This document shows, one piece after another, positions 35,934 through 53,122 of a stretch of 64,000 bases of DNA; the first letter of the stretch is position 1; every line of letters starts with the position of its first letter. Under the pieces are notes generated by a model that had not been told where the DNA came from, did no database searches, and saw only the letters and a program-made list of their open reading frames with translations. The position numbers and the translations under genes were made by a program. Source of the DNA: Christensenella sp. UBA3217 (lineage in GTDB: Bacteria > Bacillota > Clostridia > Christensenellales > CAG-1252); assembly GCA_002363545.1 (NCBI GenBank), contig DEWF01000005.1, positions 44,294 to 108,293 on the forward strand. Direction: 5' to 3'.

Positions 35934-36172
35934 TAACCAAAATTGATTTTTTTTTGCGGCTCGCGCTTTTCTGTTGAGAAAATTGCAACTTTTTACAATA
36001 ATTCTCAATACTCCTCGGGTGTCCTTTAAGCATGTCAATCATATTTGAATTACGAAATTTGTGTAAAGTTACACATTTTTCGGAATTTTCTAAATCTGTT
36101 TTTCTTAAAAGTTTTGCTGTCCGCTTTTTCGTACATCGAATATGTTATTTTCAAATAAAGGAGACGAAGTAG

Positions 36173-37444
36173 ATGAACGAGTTTGACAGAATCGCAGGCT
36201 ATGAATCAATCAAGAGCGAAATCGAAGAGATTTGTGCCTTGTTTAAAGCCGAAAAGACGTATCGGCAGAAAGGGATCAAAATCCCTAAGGGTATCCTCTT
36301 ATACGGTGCCCCGGGGATCGGGAAAACACTTTTCGCGGAGTGCTTTGCAAAGGAAAGCGGATACCCCTTTTTGCTTTGCAGAAAAGACGGCGATCAAAGT
36401 GATTTTATCGGGCGGATCGTCGAGTTCTTCGATAAGGCGGAGAAACAAGCTCCTGCGGTTTTGATCTTGGATGATCTTGATAAATATGCAACTGGGGATG
36501 ACAGAGAGAAGAATGCCGAAGAGTACGTTGTCGTGCAAACTTGCATCGACAAAAGCAGAGAGAAGGGCGTTTTCGTTTTCGCGACGGCGAACGATACGCA
36601 TTCCTTGCCAGATTCCTTGTTCCGTGCGGGACGCTTTGATCACGTTTTTGAGGTTCGCGCTCCCGAACGTGTGGACGTCGAAAAGATACTCGCCCATTAT
36701 CTTGACGGGAAGAAGGGAGCTGACGTAGACATTTTTGCTTTTTCGAAATTGCTTTGCGGAAAAAACTGTGCGGAGATCGAGCAGATTACAAACGACGCGG
36801 CGATCCGTGCTTTTCAGCGTGGGGGCGAGGAGATAAACAAAGAGGACATGATCCGCGCTTCCGTGCGCAGTATTTATCGATCTCCCAGGACGATTGTCGA
36901 TGACGTCAGAGAAGGGACTTCATACGACGAAAGAGTTGCTTATCATGAAGCCGGGCACGTGGTAGTCGCCGAGATACTTGAACCGAGCAGCGTAACGATG
37001 GTGAGCTTGGGAAATTACGAAGGATTGATCCGAGGGTTTACCGCTCGATATTATCAATCGGAGTATTGGAAAAACGCCGATCTAATAGAGAAGGATCTCA
37101 GCATTCTTCTTGCCGGAAAGTGTGCGATAGAACTTACTTACGGAACGGCGGATCCGCTTTGCGAATCCGATCTGCAAGCGGCGAGCGATGTCGCGCGGTC
37201 TTTTGTCTCGGTCTTTGCCGCAAAGGGTTTTCAGTCATACAATTCGGGATATGCGAGTTCAAGTATTCAAAGAATGATCGCGGAACGTGAAACGAACGGG
37301 GTGATGGAAGTCGCTTATGAAAGGGCAAAAAAGATCATCGCAGAGAACCGTGACTTTCTCGAAGCGATAGCAAAACAATTGATAGATAAAAAACTTCTTT
37401 TGGAAGAAGACGTCCAAAGGATAAAGATAGGTCAAGGAGGATAG
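36173..37444 (+). CDS. Soluble (TM-less) FtsH-like AAA+ ATPase fused to M41 zinc metalloprotease
   Basis: Walker A GAPGIGKT, Walker B VLILDDLDK, second region of homology ATANDTHSLPDSLFRAGRFD, HEXXH motif YHEAGHVV, LLAGKCAIELTYG. No hydrophobic N-terminal helices. Confidence 0.85.
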   Translation: MNEFDRIAGYESIKSEIEEICALFKAEKTYRQKGIKIPKGILLYGAPGIGKTLFAECFAKESGYPFLLCRKDGDQSDFIGRIVEFFDKAEKQAPAVLILDDLDKYATGDDREKNAEEYVVVQTCIDKSREKGVFVFATANDTHSLPDSLFRAGRFDHVFEVRAPERVDVEKILAHYLDGKKGADVDIFAFSKLLCGKNCAEIEQITNDAAIRAFQRGGEEINKEDMIRASVRSIYRSPRTIVDDVREGTSYDERVAYHEAGHVVVAEILEPSSVTMVSLGNYEGLIRGFTARYYQSEYWKNADLIEKDLSILLAGKCAIELTYGTADPLCESDLQAASDVARSFVSVFAAKGFQSYNSGYASSSIQRMIAERETNGVMEVAYERAKKIIAENRDFLEAIAKQLIDKKLLLEEDVQRIKIGQGG

Positions 37445-37445
37445 A

Positions 37446-37766
37446 ATGAAAAGAACTTGTATGAACGTAGTATTTACCGATCCGATAAAAGCGCTTAAAG
37501 AAACGTTGTCGCGGAGTGGTGCGAAGGACATTGATCTGCGACGTCTCTATGGGTATAACGTCGAAGTGCGATACAATGTCGCTATGCCCGATCCCAAAAG
37601 AGAGATTGCCGAAGTGTTCACCAAAATGGGCGCAAAGAATGTGCGAATCGGCGAATCGCATGATGGCGCTTGTTTTGAAATGGAAATACCCGAAATCGTG
37701 GACGAAAGAACGTTTAAGAGAAATGCGGAAGAAGTATTCCGTCGCGTAGGTTATCGGGTGCGATAA
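37446..37766 (+). CDS. Hypothetical 106-aa protein coupled to the AAA-protease gene
   Basis: AAGGAGG RBS lies inside the end of the upstream gene, with 1 nt between stop and start. No recognisable motif. Confidence 0.6.
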   Translation: MKRTCMNVVFTDPIKALKETLSRSGAKDIDLRRLYGYNVEVRYNVAMPDPKREIAEVFTKMGAKNVRIGESHDGACFEMEIPEIVDERTFKRNAEEVFRRVGYRVR

Positions 37767-37787
37767 AATATGCCCCGAGAAAGAGTC

Positions 37788-37816
37788 TTGAATGAGATCG
37801 TTAACGGTGCTATAAT
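37788..37816 (+). promoter_or_regulatory. Internal promoter for the WYL regulator / GIY-YIG unit
   Basis: TTGAAT (37788-37793), 17 nt, TATAAT (37811-37816), followed by GGAAAGGAG and a GTG at 37887. Confidence 0.5.
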
Positions 37817-37886
37817 GAAGACACGATCACCCTCTTTTTTCGCGTATCGAGCCAAGCGACTTGCGAGAAGGGGAAAGGAGCGCGCT

Positions 37887-38861
37887 GTGCCTTCGCCGAA
37901 CAATAAAAAACTATCGATTCTTTACGTTTTGGATATCCTGAAAACGTACAGTGACGAGGAGCATCTTTTGACGCACGCACAAATCGCGGAAAAGATATGT
38001 GCTCAATGGGGAATGGAATGCGAACGAAAGTCCATTGCCGCGAACGTCGACGCTTTAATCGATTTCGGCTACGATATCGTGAAGACGAGAAACGGATGCT
38101 ATCTTGCGGATCGGGAGTTTGAATCAAGCGAAATCAGCTTTCTTGCGGATGCCGTTTTTTCTTCTCCTAGCATCGACGGGAAACAAGCGAAACGCCTTGC
38201 CGAAAAGTTAACGGCATTTGAAAGTGTTTATAAAAGGAGAGATTATTCGTATCTGTATAAAGCCGATTCTTTGACCCGCACGAAAAACAAAGAAATCTTT
38301 CTTTCAATCGAGTTGATCGAAGAGGCGATCAAACAAGATAAGAAGGTTTCCTTTCGGCACGCAAACGAAGATTATAGGGGAACGCAAGGGAGAACAAGCG
38401 TCAGCCCATACTTCCTTATAAACAAACAGGGAAAATATTATCTCGTTTGTCTTTACGATGGCGAGAAGGAACTTTTCAATGTACGCCTTGATCGGATCAA
38501 GGATGTGAAAATCGCCGAAGAAAAGCGGATTCCCCTCCGCGTGATTAAAGGCTGCGAAAAGGGACTTGATATCGCGCGATATGCGAATGAAAACGTCTAT
38601 CTTCTGTCTTCGCGCAGTGTGAAAGCGAAACTTCGGCTTTTACAGCCCGAGTCACGACAATACGTTGAAGAGTGGTTCGGCAACGCGCGCTTTTTCGAGG
38701 AGAACGGGCACACCTATGCCGATCTCACGGCAAACGAACGCGCCCTCATCTATTGGTGCTTGCAGTACGGAGAAGAAGCAATCCTCGTATCCCCGCCGGA
38801 AACAAAAGCGGAGATCATTCGCTTGTTGGATCAAATAAAAAATGAATACAAAGGAGAATAA
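37887..38861 (+). CDS. HTH + WYL domain transcriptional regulator
   Basis: N-terminal wHTH KLSILYVLDILKTYSDEEHLLTHAQIAEKI. WYL core KYYLVCLYDGEKELFNVRLDRIKDVKI. The GTG at 37887 with a strong RBS is preferred; the listed ORF allows 37770 or 37815. Confidence 0.8.
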   Translation: MPSPNNKKLSILYVLDILKTYSDEEHLLTHAQIAEKICAQWGMECERKSIAANVDALIDFGYDIVKTRNGCYLADREFESSEISFLADAVFSSPSIDGKQAKRLAEKLTAFESVYKRRDYSYLYKADSLTRTKNKEIFLSIELIEEAIKQDKKVSFRHANEDYRGTQGRTSVSPYFLINKQGKYYLVCLYDGEKELFNVRLDRIKDVKIAEEKRIPLRVIKGCEKGLDIARYANENVYLLSSRSVKAKLRLLQPESRQYVEEWFGNARFFEENGHTYADLTANERALIYWCLQYGEEAILVSPPETKAEIIRLLDQIKNEYKGE

Positions 38862-38862
38862 T

Positions 38863-39888
38863 ATGGAAAAAGTTTTGAGTTTCGAAAAACTGTTTAAACT
38901 TGATGATTCTATGAAGAAGAAAGTTAAACTTGTTTTTCACACGCGAAATGATGATGAATATGCAGATGACGATCATGATGCGTGGGCTCTATTGCAGTCG
39001 GATATTGTGAAGGAGCAACAAAATGTTGCTATTTCGGATAATCAAAAACAAGATCGTTGGGCGGATATGAATTGGTCCTGTATAAGTAAAGACCTCCCGA
39101 TTCAACATCTAATCGTGTTTGCACAGTACCTTGATTATGGAAATAACTATTATGTTTTCGGCGGGTACTATGTTTATGATCGCACAAAGGAAGAGAAAAA
39201 ACTTGAGCGAAATCGGGACTACGATGAATATCGTGGGCGTTTAATAGTCAAGCGTAATGGAAATTTTGGACAAGGGTATTCGTTCTACTACGATACTGTA
39301 AAAAATAAAAAAACAGAAAACGGAGAAGATAGTTTACAAGTATATGCTTTACTCCCTTTTGATTCGGGGGTGGGTGCTTTCGTTGGATATGATAAGGTAT
39401 ATTTAACGCACAAGCAATTGGCGAAAATATTTGAATCGAAGGATGGCGCCGCAGACTGGAAAAAGGCTCTTTCAAAAGTGAAAGCGGTTTACTGCATAAC
39501 TGACACATCAAATGGAGAATTGTATATTGGCTCTGCTAACAGTAGAAATGAAGCACATTCAGAAAAAACGATTTCAGCGAATTCAAGTGCTTGCAAAGGG
39601 CTATGGGGAAGATGGCAGTATTATGCTGATCAAAACGATTTAACGGGTGGGAACAAATACTTTAATGACATTGTAAGTGGTAAAATCTCCGAAATAACAG
39701 TAAAGAAATCAAACGGAGAATTTGAAATAATTGAAATAAAGGATGGGAAAGAGCACATAAAGAACTATTTCACATATGCGATTTTGGAAATATTTGATAT
39801 TCGCACCGCGGATAGTGTTGTTCTTGCAAGAGAAGAGTATTGGAAAAAAGTATTTCAATCAAGAAAGTTTGGAATGAATCGGAACTGA
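38863..39888 (+). CDS. GIY-YIG nuclease-domain protein with ~200-aa unknown N-terminal domain
   Basis: AVYCITDTSNGELYIGSA (GIY..YIG), GLWGRWQYY (Arg), FTYAILEIF (Glu), EEYWKKVF. AAGGAG RBS; start lies 1 nt after the WYL stop. The sequence becomes more AT-rich here by eye. Confidence 0.75.
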   Translation: MEKVLSFEKLFKLDDSMKKKVKLVFHTRNDDEYADDDHDAWALLQSDIVKEQQNVAISDNQKQDRWADMNWSCISKDLPIQHLIVFAQYLDYGNNYYVFGGYYVYDRTKEEKKLERNRDYDEYRGRLIVKRNGNFGQGYSFYYDTVKNKKTENGEDSLQVYALLPFDSGVGAFVGYDKVYLTHKQLAKIFESKDGAADWKKALSKVKAVYCITDTSNGELYIGSANSRNEAHSEKTISANSSACKGLWGRWQYYADQNDLTGGNKYFNDIVSGKISEITVKKSNGEFEIIEIKDGKEHIKNYFTYAILEIFDIRTADSVVLAREEYWKKVFQSRKFGMNRN

Positions 39889-39959: not shown

Positions 39960-40432
39960 AAAACGAAAACCACGCGATAGTCGCGTGGTTCAAAAGAGGT
40001 TAACCGATGAACAGAACGACCTCCTATTGTATAATGGTTTTGTGACCTGCCAGTTACAAAAGAAATACAATAGGAGGTTATTTATGAAAAGAGAGATATC
40101 TGCAGATAGTTTAGCACACACGAAGTGGGATTGCAAATACCAGGGGGAACTTGAAATTCGCATACCGAAACAGGGAATTTTGGTGCAAGGGGTATTACGT
40201 TGATACAGTAGGGAAGAACACGAAAGCGATAAAGGAATACATAGCACACCAACTGGAACAAGATAAGCAAAGTGACCAGTTAAGTATGTTTGATCCAAGG
40301 GACCCGTTGACGGGTAGCAAGTAACAGATGCATGACTGGCAGGTCAATACAAAAACGCATTTATGCGTAGCCAGTAAAGGATAGGGCTATGCCCGAAAAT
40401 GTAAAGCCCCCCGATTTTCGGGGGGATCTTTA
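39960..40432 (+). mobile_element. IS200/IS605-family remnant (terminal hairpins retained, transposase internally deleted)
   Basis: Left-end hairpins ACCACGCGA-tag-TCGCGTGGT and CCTCCTATTGTAT...ATACAATAGGAGG, the latter sequestering the RBS. Right-end hairpin CCCCCCGA-ttt-TCGGGGGG. Confidence 0.65.
40084..40323 (+). pseudogene. tnpA: IS200-type Y1 transposase (tnpA) pseudogene, internal deletion plus frameshift
   Basis: N-terminal MKREISADSLAHTKWDCKY is joined out of frame to the C-terminal GNLKFAYRNREFWCKGYYVDTVGKNTKAIKEYIAHQLEQD. The catalytic HUH/Tyr core is missing. Confidence 0.75.
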
Positions 40433-40515: not shown

Positions 40516-41727
40516 TTAATTCAGTTTTAGATTCGTAAGTAATTCAACAAATCCCTTGTAATTATGGTGGAGATTTGTTGTTCCTATACTCTCCAATCGG
40601 TTATACTCCCTGATGGATGGGATTAACGCTGAAGGTGTTTTTATTCCGATATACCTTAACGCTTCGTTCATAATTAGATGGTTTAAGTAAATCGTTTCTT
40701 CGGCAGATATTTTTTGTATCTCGTATTCAAATAAATCGTCTTTATCTTTATATAACAGGATATCTGCTTCGGTTTTTATTTTGTCCATATTAACGTAAGT
40801 GTTTTTGGGTAAAGAGAAATGTTTCGTTAGAAACGGAGAGCAAATGGTGTCTTTATATTGATCTCGAATGGTTTTATTTGTGAAGTAATATTTCCATACC
40901 GGAGAAACAGACAAAATAGCAATATTTGACGAGATCGGGAACAGAATGTAATTATCAAAGTAACTTTTATCATTCTCTATTTCTCGTTTTGCTATTTCAT
41001 CAAAATTGTCTTTGCCAAAAAGAATCTTGCCAATTTCCTTTGCTTGGCGTATGTAACTTTCCTGTTCGCTTTTAGGAATTTTGACGGGAATTCGTTCGGT
41101 TGCATATCCTAGATCGTTAACGCAAAACTCGTTATCAGTATGTAAAAACATAAGAAAAGATGTATTGATTTCAATTGCGTGTTTTTTAATACCAACCATA
41201 TCCGAGGTAAGTAACGAGTCAAACGTGTTGTCGAGGATATAAAGCATTTCTCGTTTCCAAAAGTCTTCGCGACTTTCTCCCTCGTTGATATTAAATTGAC
41301 TTAATTCGAGCGCATTTTGCGGGACGTTCATGTAAGATCTTCGATTGTTTGGCGTTCTATATAGTTGTAAAAGAATATACTTTTTAATCGTTTCTAATTC
41401 ATAGCGTTTAAACGCATAATTGTTTTCCGAAACACATTTTGCCACTATTTTAGACATGGGCTGTTCAATCTTGATTGAAAATTTATGTTCAAGTTCCTTT
41501 ATGTCTTCTGATGAGGGAACGTCATATAGTTTGTTTTCTTGAAATGCCGACGACGTATCGAGATAAGCCGCATTAAAATTAATAAGATCCAAAACGCATA
41601 TTTTATAACACTTATTAGACGTTGGAATTGCAAAACGATTTAGTAATGCCTTTTGGATATAATGGTTTTTATCATAAGATGACATTGTAAGTTGCTCCTG
41701 CTTCTTTTGCAATAAGTATATATTCAT
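40516..41727 (-). CDS. DUF4238-like protein
   Basis: N-terminal KNHYIQKALLNRF resembles the H-[HY]-[VI]-P-Q-x-[YL]-L-x-x-F signature. Also ELEHKFSIKIEQ and LLQLYRTPNNRR blocks. An ATG at 41685 (MSSYDK) is an alternative start. Confidence 0.5.
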   Translation of the reverse strand: MNIYLLQKKQEQLTMSSYDKNHYIQKALLNRFAIPTSNKCYKICVLDLINFNAAYLDTSSAFQENKLYDVPSSEDIKELEHKFSIKIEQPMSKIVAKCVSENNYAFKRYELETIKKYILLQLYRTPNNRRSYMNVPQNALELSQFNINEGESREDFWKREMLYILDNTFDSLLTSDMVGIKKHAIEINTSFLMFLHTDNEFCVNDLGYATERIPVKIPKSEQESYIRQAKEIGKILFGKDNFDEIAKREIENDKSYFDNYILFPISSNIAILSVSPVWKYYFTNKTIRDQYKDTICSPFLTKHFSLPKNTYVNMDKIKTEADILLYKDKDDLFEYEIQKISAEETIYLNHLIMNEALRYIGIKTPSALIPSIREYNRLESIGTTNLHHNYKGFVELLTNLKLN

Positions 41728-41870: not shown

Positions 41871-43160
41871 ATGACAATAAAGCGAGATTTATATCTTGAC
41901 AAATTAAAGAATCATATGCATAACGGAATGATCAAGATCATTACCGGAATGCGCAGGTGCGGGAAAAGCGTTCTTTTATTCAATTTGTTTTATAACTATC
42001 TGATTGAGTCGGGCGTGAAAGAAGATCATATTATCGCCGTCAATCTCGAAGACGTCGGCAATCATGAGTTTAGAGACCCGCAAAAACTATACGATCATAT
42101 TTGTTCGCAAATCAAGACGAACGAGCAGTATTACGTTTTTCTTGATGAAGTTCAATACGCTATTTCCAAAGGCGATGCGCAAAGCGACGAACCGTTACCG
42201 CTTTATGGCGTTTTGAACGGCTTATTACACAAGATGAACGTGGACGTATACGTGACGGGAAGTAATTCTCGATTCCTTTCATCCGATATAAGAACGGAGT
42301 TTCGAGGTAGGGGAGATGAAATACACGTTCAACCGCTCTCTTTTGCGGAGTTTATGTCGGTTTACGATGGAGACAAATACGACGGCTTGCGCGACTATAT
42401 GGCTTACGGCGGCTTACCGCAGATTGCTTTTATGAAAACGCACGAGCAGAAGGCGGCGTATTTGACAAACCTGTTTGACGAGACTTATATAAAAGATGTC
42501 GTGGACAGGTACGGTATCCGGCGGAATGCGGCGGAGTTTGGCGAATTGGTGGATATCCTTTCGTCTGCCATCGGTTCCCTTAGCAATCCTACGAAACTCA
42601 GCAACACGTTCAAAAGCGTCAAAAACAAAACGGTCGCACAGCTTACGATAGCAAGGTATATTTCGTATCTCGAAGACTCTTTTTTGATCGACGAAGCCGT
42701 TCAATACGACGTAAAAGGAAAGAAGTATATTAACAGTCCGAAAAAATACTACTTTACGGATCTGGGACTTCGTAACGCAAGACTCAATTTCCGTCAACTT
42801 GAAGAAACCCATTCTATGGAAAACGTTATTTATAACGAGTTGAAATTGCGCGGGTATTCCGTAGATGTCGGCGTGATCGAAAAACGCGAAAAGAGCGAAG
42901 ACGGCAAAAGCCTGCGCAAGCGTTACGAAATTGATTTTGTTGCCAATCAAGGCTATAAGCGCTACTATATCCAGTCTGCACTCGCTATGCCAACCTTGGA
43001 AAAGGAGCAGCAAGAACAGCGCTCTTTGATGGGCGTCAACGACTCTTTCAAAAAGATCATCATTGTAGGCGGTTCGACTATGACGCATTATAATGAAAGC
43101 GGTATTTTGATCATGGGAATCCATGATTTCTTGTTGAAGAAAGACAGTTTGGATTTTTAA
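41871..43160 (+). CDS. AAA_14 + DUF4143-type ATPase (COG1373-like)
   Basis: Walker A GMRRCGKS, Walker B YVFLDEVQY, VYVTGSNSRFL, GRGDEIHVQPLSFAEF. Confidence 0.8.
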   Translation: MTIKRDLYLDKLKNHMHNGMIKIITGMRRCGKSVLLFNLFYNYLIESGVKEDHIIAVNLEDVGNHEFRDPQKLYDHICSQIKTNEQYYVFLDEVQYAISKGDAQSDEPLPLYGVLNGLLHKMNVDVYVTGSNSRFLSSDIRTEFRGRGDEIHVQPLSFAEFMSVYDGDKYDGLRDYMAYGGLPQIAFMKTHEQKAAYLTNLFDETYIKDVVDRYGIRRNAAEFGELVDILSSAIGSLSNPTKLSNTFKSVKNKTVAQLTIARYISYLEDSFLIDEAVQYDVKGKKYINSPKKYYFTDLGLRNARLNFRQLEETHSMENVIYNELKLRGYSVDVGVIEKREKSEDGKSLRKRYEIDFVANQGYKRYYIQSALAMPTLEKEQQEQRSLMGVNDSFKKIIIVGGSTMTHYNESGILIMGIHDFLLKKDSLDF

Positions 43161-43191: not shown

Positions 43192-45735
43192 ATGTCAGCT
43201 AAAGAAGCAAAAGCAAGAATAAAAATAAATAAAATGCTGGAATCGGCAGGTTGGCGTTTCTTCGATAGTGAAGAAGGTCCAGCTAACATTCAGGTGGAAG
43301 CCAACGTCAAAATTTCCCAAAAGCAATTTGATGATTTTGGCGAAAACTTTGAGAAAACTAGAAACGGCTTTATCGATTTTCTCCTTCTTGACGATAAGGG
43401 GAAACCGTTCATCGTATTAGAAGCGAAGTCGGAAGAAAAAGATCCTCTTGTCGGGAAAGAACAAGCCCGCGCATATGCTAAAAGCAACTGCGTGAAATAT
43501 GTGATTTTATCAAACGGAAATATCCATTATTTTTGGAATATTTACAAAGGAAATCCGCAGATCATTTTATCTTTTCCTTCATATGAGAGTGTTCAGGAGA
43601 GCAAAGCGTTAAATTCCGATCCTGCCAGGATTTATAATGAGGAAGTAAATTCTGATTATATTTCAGTTGTCAAGGAGCCGCGATATGCGGAAGCGCCGGA
43701 ATATCAGAATCAGGAAACAAGAGCGCAGTTTTTAAGGGATCGCGGACTGAGAATGATGCGCCAATATCAAGTGAATGCGATCAAGGCACTTCAAAAATCC
43801 GTTAAAGAAGGAAATCAACGATTCTTGTTTGAAATGGCGACCGGCACGGGCAAAACCCTAACTGCCGCGGCGGTCATTCGACTATTCCTTCGTAGCGGCA
43901 ACGCAAATAGAGTTTTGTTTTTGGTGGATCGTATCGAGCTTGAAAATCAAGCTAAGAAGAACTTCATCAATTACTTAAAGCCTGATTATCAAACGGTTGT
44001 TTTCAAAGAACACACCGACGATTGGCGTAAGGCGGATATTGTTGTTTCTACAGTGCAAACGCTTGCGTTTAACAATAAGTATAAAAGCGTGTTCAAACCG
44101 ACGGATTTTTCGTTGATAATTGCTGATGAAAGTCACCGTTCCATCAGTGGAAACAGTCGAGCAGTGTTTGAATACTTTATCGGTTACAAACTCGGTTTGA
44201 CGGCGACTCCAAAAGACTATTTGAAAAACGTGGACGCGGATGACCTTTCGTCAAGCGATCCCCGAGCATGGGAGCGCAGGCAACTTTTGGATACATATCG
44301 CACCTTCGGTTGCGAAAGCGGAGAACCGACATTCAGGTATTCGTTGATCGACGGTGTTAACGATCCGGACGGACCGTTCTTGGTCAATCCCACGATTGTG
44401 GATGCGCGTACCGATATAACGACGCAACTTCTTGCAGACGAAGGCTATGCCGTACTGCAGAAAGAAGACGAAGAAGATGAAGATGCGGAAGAAACTTTCT
44501 TTGCTCGCGACTTTGAAAGAAAATTCTTTTCGGACGAAACTAACAAGATGTTTGTAAAAACGTTTATGGATAATGCGCTTCGCGATCCTATTTCCGGAGA
44601 GATCGGCAAGGGCATCGTTTTCTGCGTCAGCAGAAAGCACGCCGCGAAAATTACACAACTTTTGAATGTTTACGCAGACAAAATGTTTCCTGGAAAGTAC
44701 TGTTCTGATTTTGCCATGCAGATAACATCAGACGTACAAAACGCGCAGGAATACACGATCAGTTTCCAAAACAACAATTTGAGCGGAACGAGCGGATTCC
44801 TTGAAGGATATAAATCTTCCAAGACGCGTATTTGCGTGACCGTAGGAATGATGACGACTGGGTATGACTGCGAAGATTTGTTAAATATCGGTTTGTTCCG
44901 TCCGATATTCTCTCCAACTGACTTTATTCAGATCAAAGGGCGCGGTACGCGCACGTTTACCTTCAATTACAAAACGCGGCAGAACGGAGAATGGCATGAG
45001 GAAAAAGTTGCCAAAAGCACTTTCAAACTCTTCGATTTCTTCGGAAATTGTGAGTTTTTTGAAGATAAATTCAATTACGATGAGATTATAAAACTCCCAC
45101 GGATAGCTGCAAAAACCGGAAATGACGGCGGTGAAGGAAGAGCCGTATCTATCGACACGTTTGAAAGCTTTGCGCCCGATCCGCTCAAATCGATCAAGGA
45201 AACGCAAGTCGGTTTGCAAGGGATGAAAATCGATCGAATGTTCTTTGAAAAATTCGAAGAGGTCGTCAAGAAGGACGAAACCGCCAAGGCTTCTTTCGAG
45301 GCGGGCGATTATGCGGGGACGCAACGCTATATCGAAGATAAATATATCGATAAACCGACGGAGTTCTTTACTTGGGAAAAACTCCGTAGGGCATCAGGCG
45401 TCGATCGCAGAGTAACCGTCAGAGAAATATTGGATAAAGTTTTCGGCTTGATTTCAAAGTTCAAAAGTAAGAAAGAACTGGTGGGCGATGAGTTCGACGG
45501 CTATTTGTTGACCTGCGGCGTGCCTGCCGGAGACTTTTATGAGGTCAGACATTTCTTCGAAACCTATTTGACGGATAAAGAAGTCCGTCGAGCGATCGAA
45601 GATAAGAAGTTCCAACTGCTCGGCACCCAAATCCCGAGTTATACGATGGCGGATCTGAGACGTCTCGGCAAAAAGAATATGCAAAGTGTTATCGGATATG
45701 TAAACGATAACGTAAATTTATCTAAATTCATGTGA
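43192..45735 (+). CDS. hsdR: Type I restriction enzyme R subunit-like (COG4096-type): PD-(D/E)xK nuclease + SF2 translocase
   Basis: HSDR_N-like AKARIKINKMLESAGW. Nuclease motif IDFLLLDD..FIVLEAKS. Motif I MATGTGKT, motif II IIADESHRS, motif VI IKGRGTR. Confidence 0.8.
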   Translation: MSAKEAKARIKINKMLESAGWRFFDSEEGPANIQVEANVKISQKQFDDFGENFEKTRNGFIDFLLLDDKGKPFIVLEAKSEEKDPLVGKEQARAYAKSNCVKYVILSNGNIHYFWNIYKGNPQIILSFPSYESVQESKALNSDPARIYNEEVNSDYISVVKEPRYAEAPEYQNQETRAQFLRDRGLRMMRQYQVNAIKALQKSVKEGNQRFLFEMATGTGKTLTAAAVIRLFLRSGNANRVLFLVDRIELENQAKKNFINYLKPDYQTVVFKEHTDDWRKADIVVSTVQTLAFNNKYKSVFKPTDFSLIIADESHRSISGNSRAVFEYFIGYKLGLTATPKDYLKNVDADDLSSSDPRAWERRQLLDTYRTFGCESGEPTFRYSLIDGVNDPDGPFLVNPTIVDARTDITTQLLADEGYAVLQKEDEEDEDAEETFFARDFERKFFSDETNKMFVKTFMDNALRDPISGEIGKGIVFCVSRKHAAKITQLLNVYADKMFPGKYCSDFAMQITSDVQNAQEYTISFQNNNLSGTSGFLEGYKSSKTRICVTVGMMTTGYDCEDLLNIGLFRPIFSPTDFIQIKGRGTRTFTFNYKTRQNGEWHEEKVAKSTFKLFDFFGNCEFFEDKFNYDEIIKLPRIAAKTGNDGGEGRAVSIDTFESFAPDPLKSIKETQVGLQGMKIDRMFFEKFEEVVKKDETAKASFEAGDYAGTQRYIEDKYIDKPTEFFTWEKLRRASGVDRRVTVREILDKVFGLISKFKSKKELVGDEFDGYLLTCGVPAGDFYEVRHFFETYLTDKEVRRAIEDKKFQLLGTQIPSYTMADLRRLGKKNMQSVIGYVNDNVNLSKFM

Positions 45736-45744
45736 GGAAAGTGT

Positions 45745-48219
45745 ATGCTGAACTTTGATGTCAAAAGAAAAATAAATACGTTGCGTGATATATTGGTGGG
45801 CAAAGTCCCCGATCCGAAGGCGCAGGTCGAACAGATCACCATAGCCTTGATCTATAAGTTTATGGACGATATGGATCTTCAAGGGAAAGACTTTGGAGCG
45901 GAAAGAGTGTTTTTCAAAGGTGATTTTGAAAAGTATGCTTTTTCTCAAATCATGCTTGCGGAGCATAGCGCGCAAGAACGTCTAAATCTGTATGCGGAAG
46001 GAATGGACAAAATGACAACCAATCCCGATCTTCCTCAACTTTTCCGCGACATTTTGCGCAATACCTATATCCCCTATCGCGATCCTGAAACGTTGAACCG
46101 CTTTTTGAAAGAAATCAATGAGTTTTCTTATGAAGACAGCGAAGAACTCGGCAATGCGTTTGAGTATTTGCTCTCTATTATGGGCAGTCAAGGCGACGCA
46201 GGCCAATTCCGTACCCCTCGCCATATCATCGATATGATGGTGGAGATTGTTGCGCCGACGAAGAACGAAACCATTCTCGACCCCGCTTGCGGAACCGCAG
46301 GATTCTTAATCAGCGCATACAACTATATCAAGAAGAGCAATCTTGACGAGAAAAACAACTCCAAACTATCGGCGGACGATAAAAACCGTATGACGGAGAA
46401 TTTTGCCGGATACGATATTTCGCCCGATATGGTCAGGCTTTCCCGCGTGAATATGTATTTGCACGGTTTTACCAAGCCAAACATCAGCGAATACGACACG
46501 TTGACCAGTTTGGATAGGTGGGATGATAACTACGATGTGGTTTTGGCAAATCCGCCGTTTATGACGCCGAAGGGCGGCATCGTTCCGCACAATCGTTACC
46601 GCGTTTCCGCCAAGCGAGCGGAAGTGCTGTTCGTGGATTATATTGCCGAGCACTTGAATCCCGCGGGCAGGGCGGCGATCATTGTCCCGGAGGGTATTGT
46701 TTTTCAATCGCAAACGGCATATAAAGAATTACGTAAATTCCTTGTTGAAGACGGTTATTTGTATGGCGTTATTTCTCTCCCTGCCGGTGTGTTCAATCCG
46801 TATAGCGGCGTTAAAACGAGCGTTCTTTTGCTCGACCGTGCTTTGGCGAGAAAAACGGATAGTATCCTTTTTGTAAAACTGAATAACGACGGCTTCGATC
46901 TCGGCGCGCAACGTCGTGAGATCAAGGGAAGCGAGATCCCCGACGTTATCAATATTTTCAAAGATTATCAAAAGGGAATTGAAGTTGACGGCAGACAAAA
47001 CGTAGTTCTTGCAAAGAAAAGTGATATAACTAAGCAGGACTATATTCTTGTTGGGGATAGATATCAACTTGCAGATGTTTATCAATCGAAATGGCCTACT
47101 GTAAAACTCAGCGAACTCAGTGAAATAATAACAAAAGGGACAACGCCAACGACACTAGGTTTTAATTATACAGATGGCGGAATTCGATTTATAAAAATAG
47201 AGAATATCTCTTTAAATAATGAATTGCTGAATAACGAATATGCGTTCATATCTGAAGAATGCAATAAAGCATTATATAGGAGTGTATTGCGAGAAGATGA
47301 CATCCTTTTTTCTATTGCAGGAGCATTAGGACGATGTGCAATAGTCAAAAAAGAATACTTGCCTGCCAATACCAACCAAGCCCTCGCAATAATAAGGCTA
47401 AAGGATAAAAGAGTGGTAAAATATGTTAAGATGATTTTATCGTCTTCCGCAATTAAAGATCAGATTACTTCCCTAAAAACTGGTGTCGCACAGTATAATT
47501 TGTCGTTAAAACAAATCGGAGATATTACAATACCTCTTCCGCCTTTATCCGTGCAGGAAGAAATTGTCGCCGAGATAGAATCGTATCAAAAAATTATCGA
47601 CGGTGCCCGTCAAGTTGTAGAAAACTATAAGCCGACTATCAAGATTGATCCGACGTGGAAGATCGTTCCGCTTGGTCAAGTATGCGTTACATCGTCTGGT
47701 GGTACTCCCAAAAGCACAAATCGTGAGTATTATGAAAATGGCACTATCAATTGGTTGAAAAGTGGTGAGGTTGCTAATGGGTACATTTATTCTACTGAAC
47801 AAAAGATAACAGAGAAAGCGTTAGAGGAATCTTCTGCAAAAGTTTTTCCCGCAGAAACAGTTGTAATAGCGATGTATGGCGCAACAGCGGGGCAAGTTGG
47901 CATCTTAAAAATTGCCAGTGCCACAAACCAAGCGGTTTGTGGAATACTGCCGAATAAAGTTTTTGAATCCGAATTTCTATATTTATACATGTTATCAAAA
48001 CACGATTATTTTATCAAACAGTCAACAGGTGGAGCTCAACCAAACATTTCTCAAATGCTGATAAGAAAAACCGGAGTGCCGTTAGTTGATTTGGAAGAAC
48101 AAAAGAAAGTAGTCGCACGAATTCATCTCGAAATGAATATTGTTGAGCAAAATAAAAACTTAATTAAAATCTTTGAGCAAAAGATCAAAGAAAAAATCTC
48201 TGAGGTTTGGGGAGAGTAA
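45745..48219 (+). CDS. hsdM: Fused type I methyltransferase-specificity polypeptide (HsdM N-half, two-TRD HsdS C-half)
   Basis: GQFRTPRHI, motif I LDPACGTAGFL, motif IV VLANPPF. Two TRD starts follow (WPTVKLSELSEIITKGTTP and WKIVPLGQVCVTSSGGTPK), each followed by a conserved helical spacer. Confidence 0.8.
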   Translation: MLNFDVKRKINTLRDILVGKVPDPKAQVEQITIALIYKFMDDMDLQGKDFGAERVFFKGDFEKYAFSQIMLAEHSAQERLNLYAEGMDKMTTNPDLPQLFRDILRNTYIPYRDPETLNRFLKEINEFSYEDSEELGNAFEYLLSIMGSQGDAGQFRTPRHIIDMMVEIVAPTKNETILDPACGTAGFLISAYNYIKKSNLDEKNNSKLSADDKNRMTENFAGYDISPDMVRLSRVNMYLHGFTKPNISEYDTLTSLDRWDDNYDVVLANPPFMTPKGGIVPHNRYRVSAKRAEVLFVDYIAEHLNPAGRAAIIVPEGIVFQSQTAYKELRKFLVEDGYLYGVISLPAGVFNPYSGVKTSVLLLDRALARKTDSILFVKLNNDGFDLGAQRREIKGSEIPDVINIFKDYQKGIEVDGRQNVVLAKKSDITKQDYILVGDRYQLADVYQSKWPTVKLSELSEIITKGTTPTTLGFNYTDGGIRFIKIENISLNNELLNNEYAFISEECNKALYRSVLREDDILFSIAGALGRCAIVKKEYLPANTNQALAIIRLKDKRVVKYVKMILSSSAIKDQITSLKTGVAQYNLSLKQIGDITIPLPPLSVQEEIVAEIESYQKIIDGARQVVENYKPTIKIDPTWKIVPLGQVCVTSSGGTPKSTNREYYENGTINWLKSGEVANGYIYSTEQKITEKALEESSAKVFPAETVVIAMYGATAGQVGILKIASATNQAVCGILPNKVFESEFLYLYMLSKHDYFIKQSTGGAQPNISQMLIRKTGVPLVDLEEQKKVVARIHLEMNIVEQNKNLIKIFEQKIKEKISEVWGE

Positions 48220-48221
48220 GT

Positions 48222-49226
48222 ATGAATAGCGCACGAATAAAAGAATGCACAGAATTGTCATCGGAAATCCTAAAAAACTTTGAGTTGTCTGAAGTTCCTG
48301 TTAGCAATATTATTTTGAAAAGCTTGCGTCTTTGTAGGTTACTTGGCGATGAAGACGGAATTTTGCTTTTTACCTATGAGTCTTCCGGCTATCCCAGTGG
48401 AGCAAATGGTATGTCTGCGGATTCTTGGAGAATAGCCAAAATGGCAGGGAGGAGATATTTTTCAAAAGAAAAGGATAAAAATGGCAAAGAGAAAAATGTT
48501 GAGTACGCAAAAACTCAATTAATAGCAGAACTTGAAGAATTTATTGAATCGCAAAAAATAAGTTTGTCGTCTTCTAATGATCCAAACGTATCTATTTCAT
48601 CTGCAAATCCAAGTCAATTTGTTCATACCCCGCAAGGGAACGCTAGTGTAAGAAGGTCTATCGTATTATCTATTACAGAATCGCAAAAATGGCTTCAAAA
48701 GATTAAAGGATGTTTATATAATTACATCTTGCAAATATACAATAAACTTTCTTATGGAAATATTATAGAAGATACATTCACAAAATCGCGATTGATGACA
48801 AACGATAAATTGGCAACTATGTGCCCTCAAGCAATTAATAAATTTGTTTCAGTATATGAAAACATGGATTCTGATAATTCTGAGGACTGGGCAAATGCAG
48901 TGCATTCTTGCCGCCGTATTTTGGTTGATTTGGCAGACTCACTATATCCGCCACAAGACGAGCCTATCGTTGTTGAAGGGAAAAAGATAAAAATTGGGAA
49001 AGATCAATATATTAATCGACTAATGCAGTTTATATCTGAGAAATCTTCAAGTAAAACATATAAGGATATTGTAGGCTCGGATTTGTCATTCATTGGCAAT
49101 AGACTTGATGCGATAAATGATGCAGTTTGTAAAGGGACACATTCGAATTTAACGAAAGATGAAGCGTCGAGATATATCCTGCATACTTATTTGTTAATTA
49201 GCGATATTATCGCATTGATAGAGTAA
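48222..49226 (+). CDS. AbiTii-like N-terminal domain protein (334 aa)
   Basis: VSNIILKSLRLCRLLGDEDGILLFTYESSGYP resembles the AbiTii N-domain pattern (LRK..lA..L......W...ELnGY). C-terminal helical module ends KGTHSNLTKDEASRYILHTYLLISDI. The ATG lies 2 nt after the hsdMS stop. Confidence 0.5.
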   Translation: MNSARIKECTELSSEILKNFELSEVPVSNIILKSLRLCRLLGDEDGILLFTYESSGYPSGANGMSADSWRIAKMAGRRYFSKEKDKNGKEKNVEYAKTQLIAELEEFIESQKISLSSSNDPNVSISSANPSQFVHTPQGNASVRRSIVLSITESQKWLQKIKGCLYNYILQIYNKLSYGNIIEDTFTKSRLMTNDKLATMCPQAINKFVSVYENMDSDNSEDWANAVHSCRRILVDLADSLYPPQDEPIVVEGKKIKIGKDQYINRLMQFISEKSSSKTYKDIVGSDLSFIGNRLDAINDAVCKGTHSNLTKDEASRYILHTYLLISDIIALIE

Positions 49227-49238
49227 AGAGGCATACTT

Positions 49239-50372
49239 ATGAAAAGTGATGGACATACCACTATAAATGCGAAAGCGGAAGAGCCTCTGGATTTTTCGGT
49301 TGCACTCGATAAAATTCTTGAGTACTTACCTCAAGAGTATTCGGATAAAACAGAAAAGCAATATATTGATGCTCTTATCCTTGCGACTCGTACTAGTTAT
49401 GAAAATGGGCTATATCAATTTGCATATATCCAGTACCATATGCTTTTTATGACTGCCGTGTATTATGCTCTTTTGCAAATTTCTTTCGTGCATAAAAAAG
49501 AACTTGAAAAAGGGCTATATTATTTATTAAAAGATAGGTATTCGGAGTTTTGGAAGGAAAGTAACACAAAAAAAGGGGAACTCTATTTCGGCAGTTTTGC
49601 CATAATAAACGAAAGCGACGTTTTTATGTTGCTTCGAGTGGTAGGATTAGAGAACGATTTTTTGGGTGAATTGAAGGATTTGGTTAAGCAACGAAATAAT
49701 TATGCTCACGCAAATGGGCAACTCTTGCTGACATCCGATGATCTATTTCTTGATGCCATAAGTAACTATAATGAAAAAGCAGAAAAAGTAATAAATTTTT
49801 TAAAAACAGATTTAATTGCTTTTTACAAGAAAAGTATAGGTGAAAAAGACTTCTACGATCCTGAAATACGTGCTTGTTCAGATGCGGACGAACAAATGGA
49901 ACAAGAGTTTATTAAAAAGTATTCTCTTTCTCAAACAGAATTAAACTGGTTGCGAAAAATTCAATTGTCTGAGTTTGATGATATGAATGGTGCAGAAGAG
50001 ATAAAGACACTTCATTGTGCATTGATTCATTATTATATCGAATTGACACGAGACGATTATATACCGATTGCAGATACTTATATTCAAAATAAATACCATG
50101 AAAATGCGGTGGGTTTTATAGAAAATGAGATGGGTATTAGCGCCTATGAATGCGGCAAATATGGGGCTGAATTCCCGTTGTATGAATGCCCTGAATGTGG
50201 AGAAGAGCAACTCGTTTTTGACCAAGAAAACGGTAAATATCATTGTTTTGCATGTGATGAAGATTTTACTACTGAAGATTTAGCGCGTTGTGACCGTTGT
50301 GGGTGTTTGATGAAACGAGATGACGATTGGCAGCTTTGTGGAAATTGCACAGAAGAGATAAAGAGAGATTAA
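49239..50372 (+). CDS. HEPN-like protein with C-terminal double zinc ribbon
   Basis: LVKQRNNYAHANG fits the HEPN R-x4-H (RN..AH) RNase motif. C-terminus has CPECGEE..HCFACDED and CDRCGC..LCGNC. Confidence 0.55.
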   Translation: MKSDGHTTINAKAEEPLDFSVALDKILEYLPQEYSDKTEKQYIDALILATRTSYENGLYQFAYIQYHMLFMTAVYYALLQISFVHKKELEKGLYYLLKDRYSEFWKESNTKKGELYFGSFAIINESDVFMLLRVVGLENDFLGELKDLVKQRNNYAHANGQLLLTSDDLFLDAISNYNEKAEKVINFLKTDLIAFYKKSIGEKDFYDPEIRACSDADEQMEQEFIKKYSLSQTELNWLRKIQLSEFDDMNGAEEIKTLHCALIHYYIELTRDDYIPIADTYIQNKYHENAVGFIENEMGISAYECGKYGAEFPLYECPECGEEQLVFDQENGKYHCFACDEDFTTEDLARCDRCGCLMKRDDDWQLCGNCTEEIKRD

Positions 50373-50386
50373 GAGTGGATATACAA

Positions 50387-53122
50387 ATGAACGAGTTTGA
50401 TCAAAACATTATTACCGTAAGCGACAATATCTGCAAAAATATTGCATCCATCCCTGATGGAGAGCGTGGTTTTGTATCGCAAAACATATTAAGCAATTTG
50501 CGAAATCTTGTTGAAGCTGTAGACCAGCGCATTTTTAGTGATATAGAACCTATTGAATTAAATTGCTATAACGATATCGAAAAAGCGATAAAATATGTTG
50601 CATCTCGTGGGAATTTGAGATTTTTAAGCAAGTTTCATGATTTTTTGCAGGCTTCAGTTTCGCATTATACACCGGATGAGGATAGTTCTATACGGTTGAT
50701 GTTGAAGTATTATGAATGGTTGCTCAAGATTCGTGATTACTGCAAGACGGTTTTCTCTTTAGATATTTTGGGCAACTTAGAGGACTACCCATTACAACAA
50801 GACGAATCGTTAAAAGAGTATTATGACAAAATTGCTTGTAAGTTGGAAACCGCAAGATACTATAATAGCCAGCCTAATAACAGATTTTATATTGAAAAAA
50901 ACAAGCCGTTTTTTGTTGACGGGAAAACATATTATCAATTAACGGTAACACCTGCCGATGATTTTTCGAGCAAATTTGATAGGATAATTGTTTTTTCTGA
51001 TCGTGATATCCCTTCATATTACGCCATCAAACTTGATTTTATAGACAGTTCTATCGACATTATCGATAGAGTAATGCCTATAAAAATCGTTAATAATTAT
51101 ACCGTTGCAATTCGCCCTGTTGAATTTGAAGATATAGCGTCGATTTTAGGCGTAAATAAAGTCAATGTCGGCACAAAAGAAAACAGGTTTATGATGGATT
51201 ATTTGACCAAGACTGGTGCGAATCTTACTGAGATTATCAATTATGAACAAAAATATTATGATCAACTTAAAAATGAACTAATTAGCAGATGCGAGTCAAA
51301 TAATTTTTTCATAATGCTTGATAAATGCAGAGCTTTATCGAAAAATAAAAGTTCAGGGCACAATATAATTCGTTATTTGCTATTGCGCTTGCGACACGGT
51401 GTTATGAAGGCACAAATTCAATCAACTGAAAACAATTGGTTATCTAATTTGTGCTTATTAAATGAGAGTATTCCTTTTGATAAAATGCCTTTTGACGCAT
51501 CTCTTCATAATCACAATCCATCTCTATTTGATATTTTTTCAAGCATAAATATTAAAGGGCACGAAGAGGAACTGCTTTCAAGGAAAGTGCGCACCAATAC
51601 CGAACAAAAAGTTCAATTATTTACACCAATAGAAGATGTAAAAAAATATGGTGATGTAGAGGAATTGGCAAATAGGTTTAACTCACGTCTTATCCCCAAG
51701 CACAAACCCGTTAGAAGTTTGATAATCGAACACGGACAAATCCATATAAAAGGTTATGTGGATGACACTATTTGGATAATTAATAATCTTATTAGCAGAC
51801 AAGAGAGCGGATTAGCCGGGTACAAAAATTCGATGATATCTTGGGTAAATACAAATCCTGCGGTAGATTCGGAAGAAAAAAAGAAGATTTTACCTAATAT
51901 TTTTGATAGTTCCAATTTAGCGTTGATTTATGGCGCAGCAGGAACCGGCAAAACAACACTAATTAAACATTTGGCAGATTACTTTTCAAATGAAAGTAAA
52001 CTGTTCTTGGCGAATACAAATCCAGCGAAGGAACATCTTCGCAGAGAAATAAAAACAAAAAATAGCGAATTCAGTACCATAGCAGGAAGCAAACAGTATT
52101 TGAAATACTCTTATGATGTAGTTTTTATTGACGAATGTAGTACTGTGGACAATTTATCAATGAAAAAACTGTTACAGCAATTATCATGTAAATTATTAGT
52201 GCTTGTAGGAGATGTGTTTCAGATACAATCCATATCATTTGGTAATTGGTTTGGTCTTGCTCGTTATTTCTTGCCTAAAAGCATAATTTTTGAGCTGACT
52301 ACACCTTACAGGGGGCAACAAAATAATAATCTTATTGGTTTATGGAATCGCGTACGAGAACTTGATCCGCAAATTGCAGAATATATCTATAGAAACAAAT
52401 ATTCTGCAACTTTAGATGATGGGACTATTTTTGCAAACGATTTAACTGATAGAATTATTTTATGCTTGAATTACGACGGCTTATATGGAATTAATAATAT
52501 AAATCGATTTTTACAAAACGATAATCCTAATCCTCCAATCACATGGGACTCATGGATATACAAAGTCAATGATCCGGTTTTATTTAATGAACATAATCGC
52601 TTTTATCCCACTCTTTACAATAATTTAAAAGGTTGGATTCGTGATATCAAAAAGGATGATTATTCTATAACTTTTACTGTGGAAATAGATATGCCGATCA
52701 ATGGATTCGGAGCGTCTGAAGCAGGTTTTGAGTTGTTGGAGTGTGATGTGTCTGGGCATTCAATTATTAGGTTTACCGTGGGCAAATATGTTGATGACGA
52801 TAGTAGAGAAAGAAAACAAGAACAAGTGGTTCCTTTTCAAGTTGCTTATGCAGTATCAATACATAAAGCACAAGGACTTGAATACGATTCCGTGAAAATC
52901 GTTGTAACAAATGAGATAGAAGAGTTAATCTCTCACAATATTTTTTATACGGCAATTACTCGCGCAAAGAGAAAACTGAAAATATATTGGCAACCTGAAA
53001 CGCAACAGAAAATATTGTCTACCATAGAACCAATTTCCAACAAAAAAGATGCCTATATTATTGAAGCGAAATATGGGTTGAAGATATTGAATATGGTAAA
53101 ACAAGTAAAAAGGACGATTTAA
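50387..53122 (+). CDS. RecD/Dda-like SF1 helicase with ~530-aa uncharacterised N-terminal region
   Basis: Walker A YGAAGTGKTT, Walker B VVFIDECS, LVLVGDVFQ, AVSIHKAQGLEYDSV, FYTAITRAKRKLKIY. The ATG at 50387 follows the upstream stop by 14 nt. Confidence 0.8.
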   Translation: MNEFDQNIITVSDNICKNIASIPDGERGFVSQNILSNLRNLVEAVDQRIFSDIEPIELNCYNDIEKAIKYVASRGNLRFLSKFHDFLQASVSHYTPDEDSSIRLMLKYYEWLLKIRDYCKTVFSLDILGNLEDYPLQQDESLKEYYDKIACKLETARYYNSQPNNRFYIEKNKPFFVDGKTYYQLTVTPADDFSSKFDRIIVFSDRDIPSYYAIKLDFIDSSIDIIDRVMPIKIVNNYTVAIRPVEFEDIASILGVNKVNVGTKENRFMMDYLTKTGANLTEIINYEQKYYDQLKNELISRCESNNFFIMLDKCRALSKNKSSGHNIIRYLLLRLRHGVMKAQIQSTENNWLSNLCLLNESIPFDKMPFDASLHNHNPSLFDIFSSINIKGHEEELLSRKVRTNTEQKVQLFTPIEDVKKYGDVEELANRFNSRLIPKHKPVRSLIIEHGQIHIKGYVDDTIWIINNLISRQESGLAGYKNSMISWVNTNPAVDSEEKKKILPNIFDSSNLALIYGAAGTGKTTLIKHLADYFSNESKLFLANTNPAKEHLRREIKTKNSEFSTIAGSKQYLKYSYDVVFIDECSTVDNLSMKKLLQQLSCKLLVLVGDVFQIQSISFGNWFGLARYFLPKSIIFELTTPYRGQQNNNLIGLWNRVRELDPQIAEYIYRNKYSATLDDGTIFANDLTDRIILCLNYDGLYGINNINRFLQNDNPNPPITWDSWIYKVNDPVLFNEHNRFYPTLYNNLKGWIRDIKKDDYSITFTVEIDMPINGFGASEAGFELLECDVSGHSIIRFTVGKYVDDDSRERKQEQVVPFQVAYAVSIHKAQGLEYDSVKIVVTNEIEELISHNIFYTAITRAKRKLKIYWQPETQQKILSTIEPISNKKDAYIIEAKYGLKILNMVKQVKRTI

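Follow-up and report, generated by a model that had tools for sequence, protein, structure and literature searches.

FtsH is the textbook membrane-anchored AAA+ protease. Regulators of the WYL type adjoin many defense systems, but we know of no report that gives them a dedicated protein partner. The locus considered here pairs a relative of the first with a member of the second. It lies in a window of 64,000 nucleotides from Christensenella sp. UBA3217 (assembly GCA_002363545.1, contig DEWF01000005.1, positions 44,294 to 108,293, forward strand), and its central gene, which we call FtsHl (36173 to 37444, + strand), encodes a soluble FtsH-family AAA+/M41 zinc protease of 423 amino acids (aa) without an N-domain or transmembrane helices. 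It is followed by a translationally coupled 106-aa open reading frame (ORF), p106 (37446 to 37766, +), a lineage-specific accessory; by the conserved partner of FtsHl, a 324-aa winged helix-turn-helix (wHTH)-WYL-WCX regulator with a GTG start (37887 to 38861, +); and by a UzuA-like (Uzume) GIY-YIG-type nuclease, an effector coupled to the WYL gene (38863 to 39888, +). The kinds of module involved, WYL-controlled island modules and AAA+ proteases, are known, while the pairing of FtsHl with a WYL regulator does not seem to have been described so far: our literature search found no description of an FtsH without transmembrane helices coupled to WYL regulators. On balance, we consider it probable that a DriD-like WYL circuit on mobile islands has FtsHl as an inducible proteolytic output, no matter which nuclease is carried.

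The closest described relatives of this arrangement on the regulatory side are WYL modules in which a regulator lies beside its genes and a palindromic site lies in the promoter; the present locus has the same layout, with the site predicted by computation. In the case of DriD, a pseudo-palindrome overlaps a missing −35 element at a fixed distance from the −10 element, and DriD bound to single-stranded DNA (ssDNA) activates transcription (PMC13004042). Our locus resembles the DriD regulon of Caulobacter in its wHTH-WYL-WCX regulator, in a palindrome that covers the −35 position and keeps a constant spacing to the −10, and in outputs that include an endonuclease, and it differs in being carried on mobile islands of gut Firmicutes with swappable effectors. 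We know of no AAA+ protease in the DriD regulon. WYL proteins of the BrxR and CapW type are repressors; like the regulator described here, they stand beside diverse, exchangeable defense systems (BREX, CBASS, and defense islands) with a palindromic promoter operator, but no protease partner has been described for them, and the BrxR paper mentions none. The actinobacterial WYL regulators PafBC have a genetic link to an AAA+ proteolytic machine, and PafBC and the Pup-proteasome thus offer a second case of WYL regulators linked to AAA+-driven proteolysis, in a DNA damage response. The machinery is unrelated (Mpa, the 20S proteasome, and Pup versus a single-chain FtsH-like enzyme), and to our knowledge PafBC do not drive protease genes via a dedicated operator.

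The motifs GAPGIGKT, LILDDLD, LFRAGRFD, and HEAGH all fall within the 423-aa ORF of FtsHl. Pfam profiles matched its AAA (8.7e-20) and Peptidase_M41 (PF01434; 1.1e-17) domains, with AAA_lid_3 under its cutoff, and residues 4 to 418 aligned end to end with cytosolic FtsH (PDB 2dhr, residues 30 to 466). An AlphaFold model built from 32 family members had a mean predicted local distance difference test (pLDDT) score of 87, and its best Foldseek matches were FtsH (3kds; TM score, 0.76), AFG3L2 (6nyy; 0.80), and YME1 (6az0; 0.76). Across 32 diverse members, the residues K51 (Walker A), F78 (pore loop), N140 (sensor-1), and R151 and R154 (arginine fingers) were invariant, as were the M41 zinc site H258-E259-x-x-H262 and the third zinc ligand, D333. 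FtsHl shares with FtsH, YME1, and AFG3L2 a single classical AAA+ module fused to M41, the motif residues just listed, and the predicted fold, but transmembrane helices are missing, as is any periplasmic or N-terminal domain. A TAG codon immediately 5′ of its ATG makes an N-terminal extension impossible, and the AAA domain begins at the protein start. The highest 19-aa hydropathy window, at the Walker A strand, reached only 1.14, so no transmembrane helix is predicted, and the anchor of FtsH (two transmembrane helices and a periplasmic loop) is missing. The first-pass annotation had reported a complete AAA+/M41 protease lacking transmembrane helices, and both parts of that description hold. Judged from its sequence, FtsHl is a cytosolic FtsH-family AAA+ zinc protease consisting of no more than an ATPase ring and an M41 chamber.

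FtsHl differs from FtsH in further respects. Its Walker B motif reads LDDxDK in 32/32 members, placing DD (D100-D101) where classical AAA+ proteins have DE, and four residues are deleted directly after the pore-loop Phe. Against the FtsH equivalog model TIGR01241 it scored 180.5 bits, below the cutoff of 600. Its genes lie on mobile islands behind a WYL-type promoter. A protein search returned more than 100 AAA+/M41 proteins of ~400 to 440 aa without an anchor and with 34 to 66% identity to FtsHl, compared with 26 to 31% identity between FtsHl and canonical FtsH. The few homologues with a source name came from Clostridia or Clostridiales metagenome-assembled genomes (MAGs), and the NCBI label for FtsHl homologues was “AAA family ATPase” and nothing more specific; the four module proteins of the window had no names in the source collection. 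Insertion sites were unrelated to one another: after luxS, after rpoC, beside cas9, and on a plasmid.

The family was abundant in gut and rumen metagenomes, with at least 535 relatives among the matches listed. Species-representative genomes yielded five family loci among the 80 matches listed, most of which were canonical FtsH matched via the HEAGH pattern; because this pattern drew in canonical FtsH, the query for the metagenome scan was rebuilt from the AAA half. Four members were found on IMG/VR contigs and none in 50,697 GenBank phage records, where the matches were canonical or jumbo-phage FtsH-like proteins at 26 to 28% identity. With no family member in those records, a phage origin of FtsHl was rejected. 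Jumbo phages (records H11 to H15, e.g., Pseudomonas phage PA5oct MK797984.1, 175625 to 176881) gave full-length FtsHl matches of ~1.26 kb (~420 codons) at 26% identity, some of them annotated “cell division protein.” These proteins may be anchorless too, but they fall outside the FtsHl family.

Two described conflict systems also recruit AAA+ proteins of related kinds. The AAA half of FtsHl (residues 11 to 237 only) matched IetA, both in PADLOC (3e-27) and as the NCBIfam family “IteA_antiphage” (NF042959; 2.7e-22), and IetAS resembles the locus in combining an AAA+ ATPase with a protease in defense. The protease of FtsHl is fused and of another class, and no IetS-like gene was found among the FtsHl neighbors in the window. 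The MoxR-vWA “FtsH ternary” conflict systems, which belong to other phyla, contain a pair of AAA domains of which the first is inactive, and MoxR and vWA proteins always accompany them (Kaur et al. 2020, PMC7159879). What they have in common with the locus is the use of an FtsH-type AAA+ domain in a predicted conflict system. FtsHl, by contrast, has only one AAA module, which is joined to M41, and neither a MoxR nor a vWA gene was found adjacent to it in the window. The first-pass annotation had not recognized the module among described systems, and PADLOC, which matched the AAA half alone, and the literature both bear this out.

The gene most often found with FtsHl encodes the WYL regulator. 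Neighborhoods were compared for the window plus 108 family loci (numbered with the prefix L), dereplicated at 90% FtsHl identity into 61 lineages, with neighbors within ~6.5 kb clustered. One WYL subfamily was the top neighbor, in 29/61 lineages, the runner-up family reaching 6/61. Of the 29 lineages whose flanks reach at least 3.5 kb in both directions, 22 had a strong WYL match and a 23rd had a divergent one. The order of the two genes varied (FtsHl-WYL, WYL-FtsHl, divergent, or with one to six genes between them). In the window, the product of the WYL gene matched Pfam WYL (1.9e-10) and WCX (4.8e-6) and PADLOC WYL (6.9e-24); its start was placed at GTG 37887, not 37770, and that of UzuA at 38863, from the gene models of other callers and the N termini of homologues. 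A profile of the WYL family searched against solved structures matched DriD best (3.5e-7) and PafC/PafBC weakly; only DriD and PafB/C entries were returned, with no chain named BrxR or CapW, and a search of the same structures with the single sequence gave no match. WYL relatives at 53 to 55% identity also occurred without FtsHl (L262 to L266), so far as the flanks extend, which reach the full 8 kb only in L266; on this limited sample the dependence between FtsHl and WYL looks one-sided. As far as these gene neighborhoods indicate, the conserved partner of FtsHl is the WYL regulator and not p106, which the first-pass annotation had taken for its coupled partner.

Other genes also recurred near the pair. 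An ADP-ribosylglycohydrolase family gene was seen near the WYL gene in five lineages, L250 (7028 to 7840, −), L023, L101, and L183 among them. RNase_T/DEDDh-type exonuclease genes recurred beside FtsHl (L009 to L012, L019, L100, and L005), lying shortly 3′ of FtsHl past a 43-aa ORF in L009 to L012 and between p106 and the WYL gene in L005.

A candidate site for the regulator lies directly in the FtsHl promoter. The conserved 18-bp palindrome TGTCC-GCTTTTTC-GTACA (36118 to 36135, +) is a predicted WYL site in the −35 position, and exactly 10 nucleotides (nt) past it stands the −10 hexamer TATTTT (36146 to 36151, +), preceded by TGT (an extended −10). Comparison of upstream regions gave a site consensus of TGT[AC]C-N8-G[GT]ACA and a composite motif of TGTMC-N8-GKACA + N10 + TAnnnT. 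In 31/32 family promoters TAnnnT was found exactly 10 nt past the site, and in these 32 promoters, read by eye, no −35-like hexamer was seen, the palindrome being in that position. A site with at most one mismatch was present 54 to 108 nt before the FtsHl start in 20/58 lineages, compared with 2.3% of random 120-nt windows from the same loci, and the composite motif occurred 43 times in 1.15 Mb (both strands), compared with 2.4 expected in shuffles, although both statistics are partly circular because the motif was derived from the same loci. Nineteen of the 43 matches preceded FtsHl (17 assigned by script and 2 reassigned from overlapping spurious ORFs), and ~16 preceded other same-strand genes of the same loci. 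The 64-kb window contained a single composite match, the one in front of FtsHl, even when up to two mismatches were allowed.

Independent checks of the motif came from L262 to L267 only, which were fetched after the motif had been defined. The WYL genes of L262 to L266, which lack FtsHl, have TGTGC-AAAAAAAT-GCACA, N10, and TATACT 68 nt before their own start codon. Plasmid pCY186 of Butyrivibrio proteoclasticus B316 (L267, NC_014390.1) carries five near-identical promoters in 15 kb, with TGTGC-N8-GCACA + N10 + TATTAT, at positions 2976, 3788, 5350, 6904, and 11065; these precede an unnamed gene, a dnaX unit, another unnamed gene, FtsHl, and a PolC operon, respectively, and a WYL gene of the family studied here lies upstream. 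Together, the pCY186 promoters look like those of a WYL regulon in a cultured strain, with replisome genes of the plasmid among its members. Variants of the site also sorted with WYL clades: WYL identity was 57 to 86% within a site-variant group versus 32 to 47% between groups, while FtsHl identity in two of the groups was 40.5% and 40.7% within versus 40.6 to 44.8% between. By these comparisons the site variant follows the WYL clade, not the FtsHl clade. We infer that the palindrome at 36118 to 36135 is an operator bound by the WYL protein, with FtsHl as its commonest predicted direct target.

The extent of the regulated unit can be predicted as well. A sigma-70-type promoter match (TTGAAT-17-TATAAT with TG; 37788 to 37816, +) lies in the 120-nt gap 5′ of the WYL gene and has no WYL-type site. 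Since WYL-UzuA thus has its own consensus-like promoter without the site, FtsHl-p106 is the predicted regulated unit. A scan of the + strand between 37444 and 37887 found no terminator-like site, so read-through into WYL-UzuA is possible. The first-pass annotation had drawn attention to another palindrome upstream of FtsHl, TGTGTAA-ag-TTACACA (36060 to 36075), which exists as stated but is probably not the operator. Palindromes as good as this one numbered 58 in the window versus ~20 in mononucleotide shuffles, the closest locus (L180) has kept its right arm alone, and it overlaps a minus-strand promoter-like match (36067 to 36038). We rejected it as an operator on its frequency and nonconservation; the conserved control element is the site at 36118 to 36135.

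The genes adjacent to the WYL gene, mostly directly downstream, were differing known or candidate defense genes in each locus. In the window, the neighbor at 38863 to 39888, and not FtsHl, carries the UzuA match of Uzume (PADLOC; 5.4e-32), and UzuA also occupies this place in L180 and L197. Most FtsHl loci had other effectors in place of UzuA: PDDEXK_4/PDC-S26 (L005, L011, L013, L019, L214, and others), GmrSD/HEC-06 (L009/L010, L024, and L249), Mrr_cat/PDC-S02 (L100 and L228), and KAP NTPase/PDC-S20 (L100 and L101). Among close relatives, L009/L010 and L011/L012 have FtsHl proteins that are 100% identical and WYL proteins that are 99 to 100% identical, with a GmrSD pair as the effector in the former versus PDDEXK_4 in the latter. 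Between the window and L180, identity was 67% for FtsHl, 69% for p106, and 74% for WYL versus 93% for UzuA (9712 to 10737 in L180), a pattern that points to a recent swap confined to the nuclease cassette. The WYL regulator and the GIY-YIG nuclease that the first-pass annotation had placed next to FtsHl are both there, but the four-gene block from 36173 to 39888 as a unit fared less well: it recurs in three lineages, and elsewhere other effectors take the place of the nuclease. In L020, a minimal insertion consisting of WYL, FtsHl, and a 75-aa ORF sits between rpoB-rpoC and efp and is free of nucleases. This standalone island fits FtsHl as an output in its own right, and together with effector swapping it favors an output over an effector-specific helper.

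These observations can be assembled into a working mechanism for FtsHl as an inducible output. The WYL protein would bind ssDNA arising from phage or plasmid replication or from DNA damage, by analogy with DriD, CapW, and PafBC; the ssDNA signal is proposed on that analogy. The ssDNA-bound protein would then turn on the FtsHl promoter, as an activator or by releasing it from repression. Production of FtsHl and p106 would follow, and read-through would lift WYL and UzuA as well. Hexameric FtsHl would degrade one or more cytosolic proteins, its putative substrates, in parallel with the nuclease effector of the island. The DriD-like layout would suit activation; the extended −10 elements and the precedent of BrxR- and CapW-type WYL proteins, which are repressors, speak against it. 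In its stronger form, which we regard as a tentative suggestion, WYL and FtsHl would make up a self-sufficient two-gene immune module, switched by a DriD-like ssDNA sensor via an operator in the −35 position, and would also serve as a chassis for swapped nucleases; the anti-phage role is the putative element here.

Several observations weigh against FtsHl being such an output. The Glu-to-Asp change in Walker B may, from sequence comparison, slow ATP hydrolysis and weaken unfolding. Six of the 29 well-flanked loci had no WYL gene within reach, and the FtsHl loci without WYL were integrative or plasmid-like elements with an integrase, a PolC-type polymerase, SpoVK-like and MoxR-like ATPases, a ClpP-like protease, and PcfJ. 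The ORFs of the census loci were called mechanically, and the partial circularity of the motif statistics belongs here as well. Approximately 19/32 promoters, read by eye, have a TGn extended −10 and could therefore fire without an activator. Finally, in several loci and in pCY186, FtsHl lies amid element-encoded replisome genes (PolC, DnaX, DnaA/Hda, and RNase_T), so FtsHl may serve replication or the response to DNA damage instead of immunity.

This last point leads to the alternative that survives best, which we nevertheless judge unlikely: that FtsHl is a replication or DNA damage factor of mobile elements, belonging to a WYL regulon of element replisome and repair genes whose products it remodels or degrades, with the defense setting secondary. 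In pCY186, dnaX, FtsHl, and the PolC operon each have a WYL-type promoter in front; PolC/DnaE-like, RNase_T, DnaA-like, and DUF2779 genes recur beside FtsHl; and the DriD and PafBC regulons are DNA damage regulons. Against this, the window and many other loci have defense neighbors and no replication genes, and the sole WYL-type site of the window precedes FtsHl.

It is also conceivable, but rather improbable, that the protease acts on its own circuit. FtsHl would in that case degrade the WYL protein or another repressor and make a graded ssDNA signal all-or-none, as in ImmA/ImmR, IrrE/DdrO, and CapP/CapH. In these systems, small M78-type proteases (ImmA, IrrE, and CapP) make a single cut in an XRE repressor. 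The likeness is one of logic only, namely, a regulator and zinc metalloprotease pair, responsive to DNA damage, that flanks variable cargo. FtsHl is an ATP-driven processive M41 enzyme, and its WYL partner would itself be the ligand sensor; M41 plus AAA+ with a WYL regulator stands where those pairs have M78 and XRE. Consistent with feedback, FtsHl keeps with WYL whatever the effector, the two genes are often co-operonic or divergent, and pairs of a repressor and a zinc protease beside variable defense cargo are an established theme (PMC12041258). However, the island between rpoC and efp that holds WYL and FtsHl would then be a circuit without an output, WYL relatives function without FtsHl (L262 to L266), FtsHl and WYL clades have reassorted in a way not expected of a tight enzyme-substrate pair, and the WYL proteins lack a long terminal tail such as FtsH usually engages.

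A safety or reset role, in which FtsHl would clear the coencoded toxic nucleases once the alarm is over, as the Pup-proteasome does after the PafBC response, strikes us as improbable. Coinduction with the nucleases would suit such a role, and the actinobacterial precedent links WYL genes to an AAA+ proteolytic system, PafBC being a weak match of the WYL profile. But a single protease would have to recognize the unrelated UzuA, GmrSD, PDDEXK_4, Mrr, and KAP proteins, and the nuclease-free L020 would leave it without work to do.

The model put forward in the first-pass annotation, that FtsHl and p106 form a protease-gated toxin or toxin-antitoxin-like pair, now appears very improbable. The two genes are indeed tightly coupled, p106 starting 1 nt past the FtsHl TAG (37442 to 37444) with a strong Shine-Dalgarno sequence, AAGGAGG, at 37434 to 37440, and the pair has been kept in four lineages (the window, L180, L197, and L005), each time with p106 directly 3′ of FtsHl and with 43 to 69% identity between p106 of the window and its copies in L005, L180, and L197. 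But p106 is absent from the other 57 of the 61 lineages, and this rarity speaks against a general logic of that kind; elsewhere, FtsHl is trailed by other, unrelated small genes or by none. As had been noted, p106 has no recognizable motif: it had no match in Pfam, NCBIfam, or PHROGs, and no toxin-like or antitoxin-like match in the PADLOC, sequence, or fold searches. An exhaustive search of 1.84 billion cluster representatives found 17 relatives (E ≤ 0.001), none of them informative, where a word-indexed search had found 2. Its sole long match, P0134, was discarded as spurious since it is a TPR protein. The AlphaFold model of p106 (pLDDT, 58) matched only generic or designed ferredoxin-like folds. 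Our reading of p106 is that of an adaptor or modulator restricted to particular lineages.

That FtsHl is an ordinary housekeeping FtsH paralogue is scarcely credible: it has the FtsH fold and motifs, but it falls at 180 bits against the 600-bit equivalog cutoff, has no membrane anchor, is closer to its own family (34 to 66%) than to canonical FtsH (26 to 31%), and occurs at few species representatives, among the matches listed, and at unrelated insertion sites.

The placement of FtsHl at the edge of a defense island, another point made in the first-pass annotation, stood up to closer analysis. The module forms the left edge of a ~21-kb mobile island (~36000 to 57220 in the window), with luxS on the outer side. 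Inward of FtsHl-p106-WYL-UzuA follow an IS200-type transposase remnant (39985 to 40324; two short overlapping ORFs, frameshifted in appearance, the second matching Y1_Tnp at 1.5e-5), a 403-aa gene to which the precomputed contig annotation gives the label DUF4238 (40516 to 41727, −), PDC-S01 (41871 to 43160), a type I restriction-modification system with a fused M-S subunit (43192 to 48219), AbiTii (48207 to 49226), a weak HEPN match (49239 to 50372), and an SF1 helicase (50327 to 53122). Contrary to the precomputed DUF4238 label, the 403-aa ORF had no match in our Pfam scans. At the far end lies a large serine recombinase with Resolvase, Recombinase, and Zn_ribbon_recom domains (55548 to 57152, +), abutted by a tRNA-Ser gene (57131 to 57220, −); the same recombinase family was seen again near FtsHl in L024, L100, and L101. 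Outside the island, the window opens with a giant ORF of 2,513 aa (19 to 7560, +) that has no significant Pfam domain.

The FtsHl family offers an abundant natural set of soluble proteins cut down to the catalytic core of FtsH, with an invariant Walker B Asp, that should be useful for studies of protease mechanism. Among WYL regulators, one subfamily has the FtsHl gene as its most frequent predicted direct target. The operator, promoter layout, and regulon predicted here open the idea to direct tests, for which Butyrivibrio proteoclasticus B316 with its plasmid pCY186 is available as a cultured carrier. If WYL and FtsHl do constitute a two-gene immune module, which we hold to be doubtful at present, this would be the first anti-phage system with an inducible soluble FtsH-type AAA+ protease as its effector. 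If FtsHl is an effector or part of the switch, regulated bulk proteolysis would join the outputs of immune and DNA damage circuits in gut Firmicutes.

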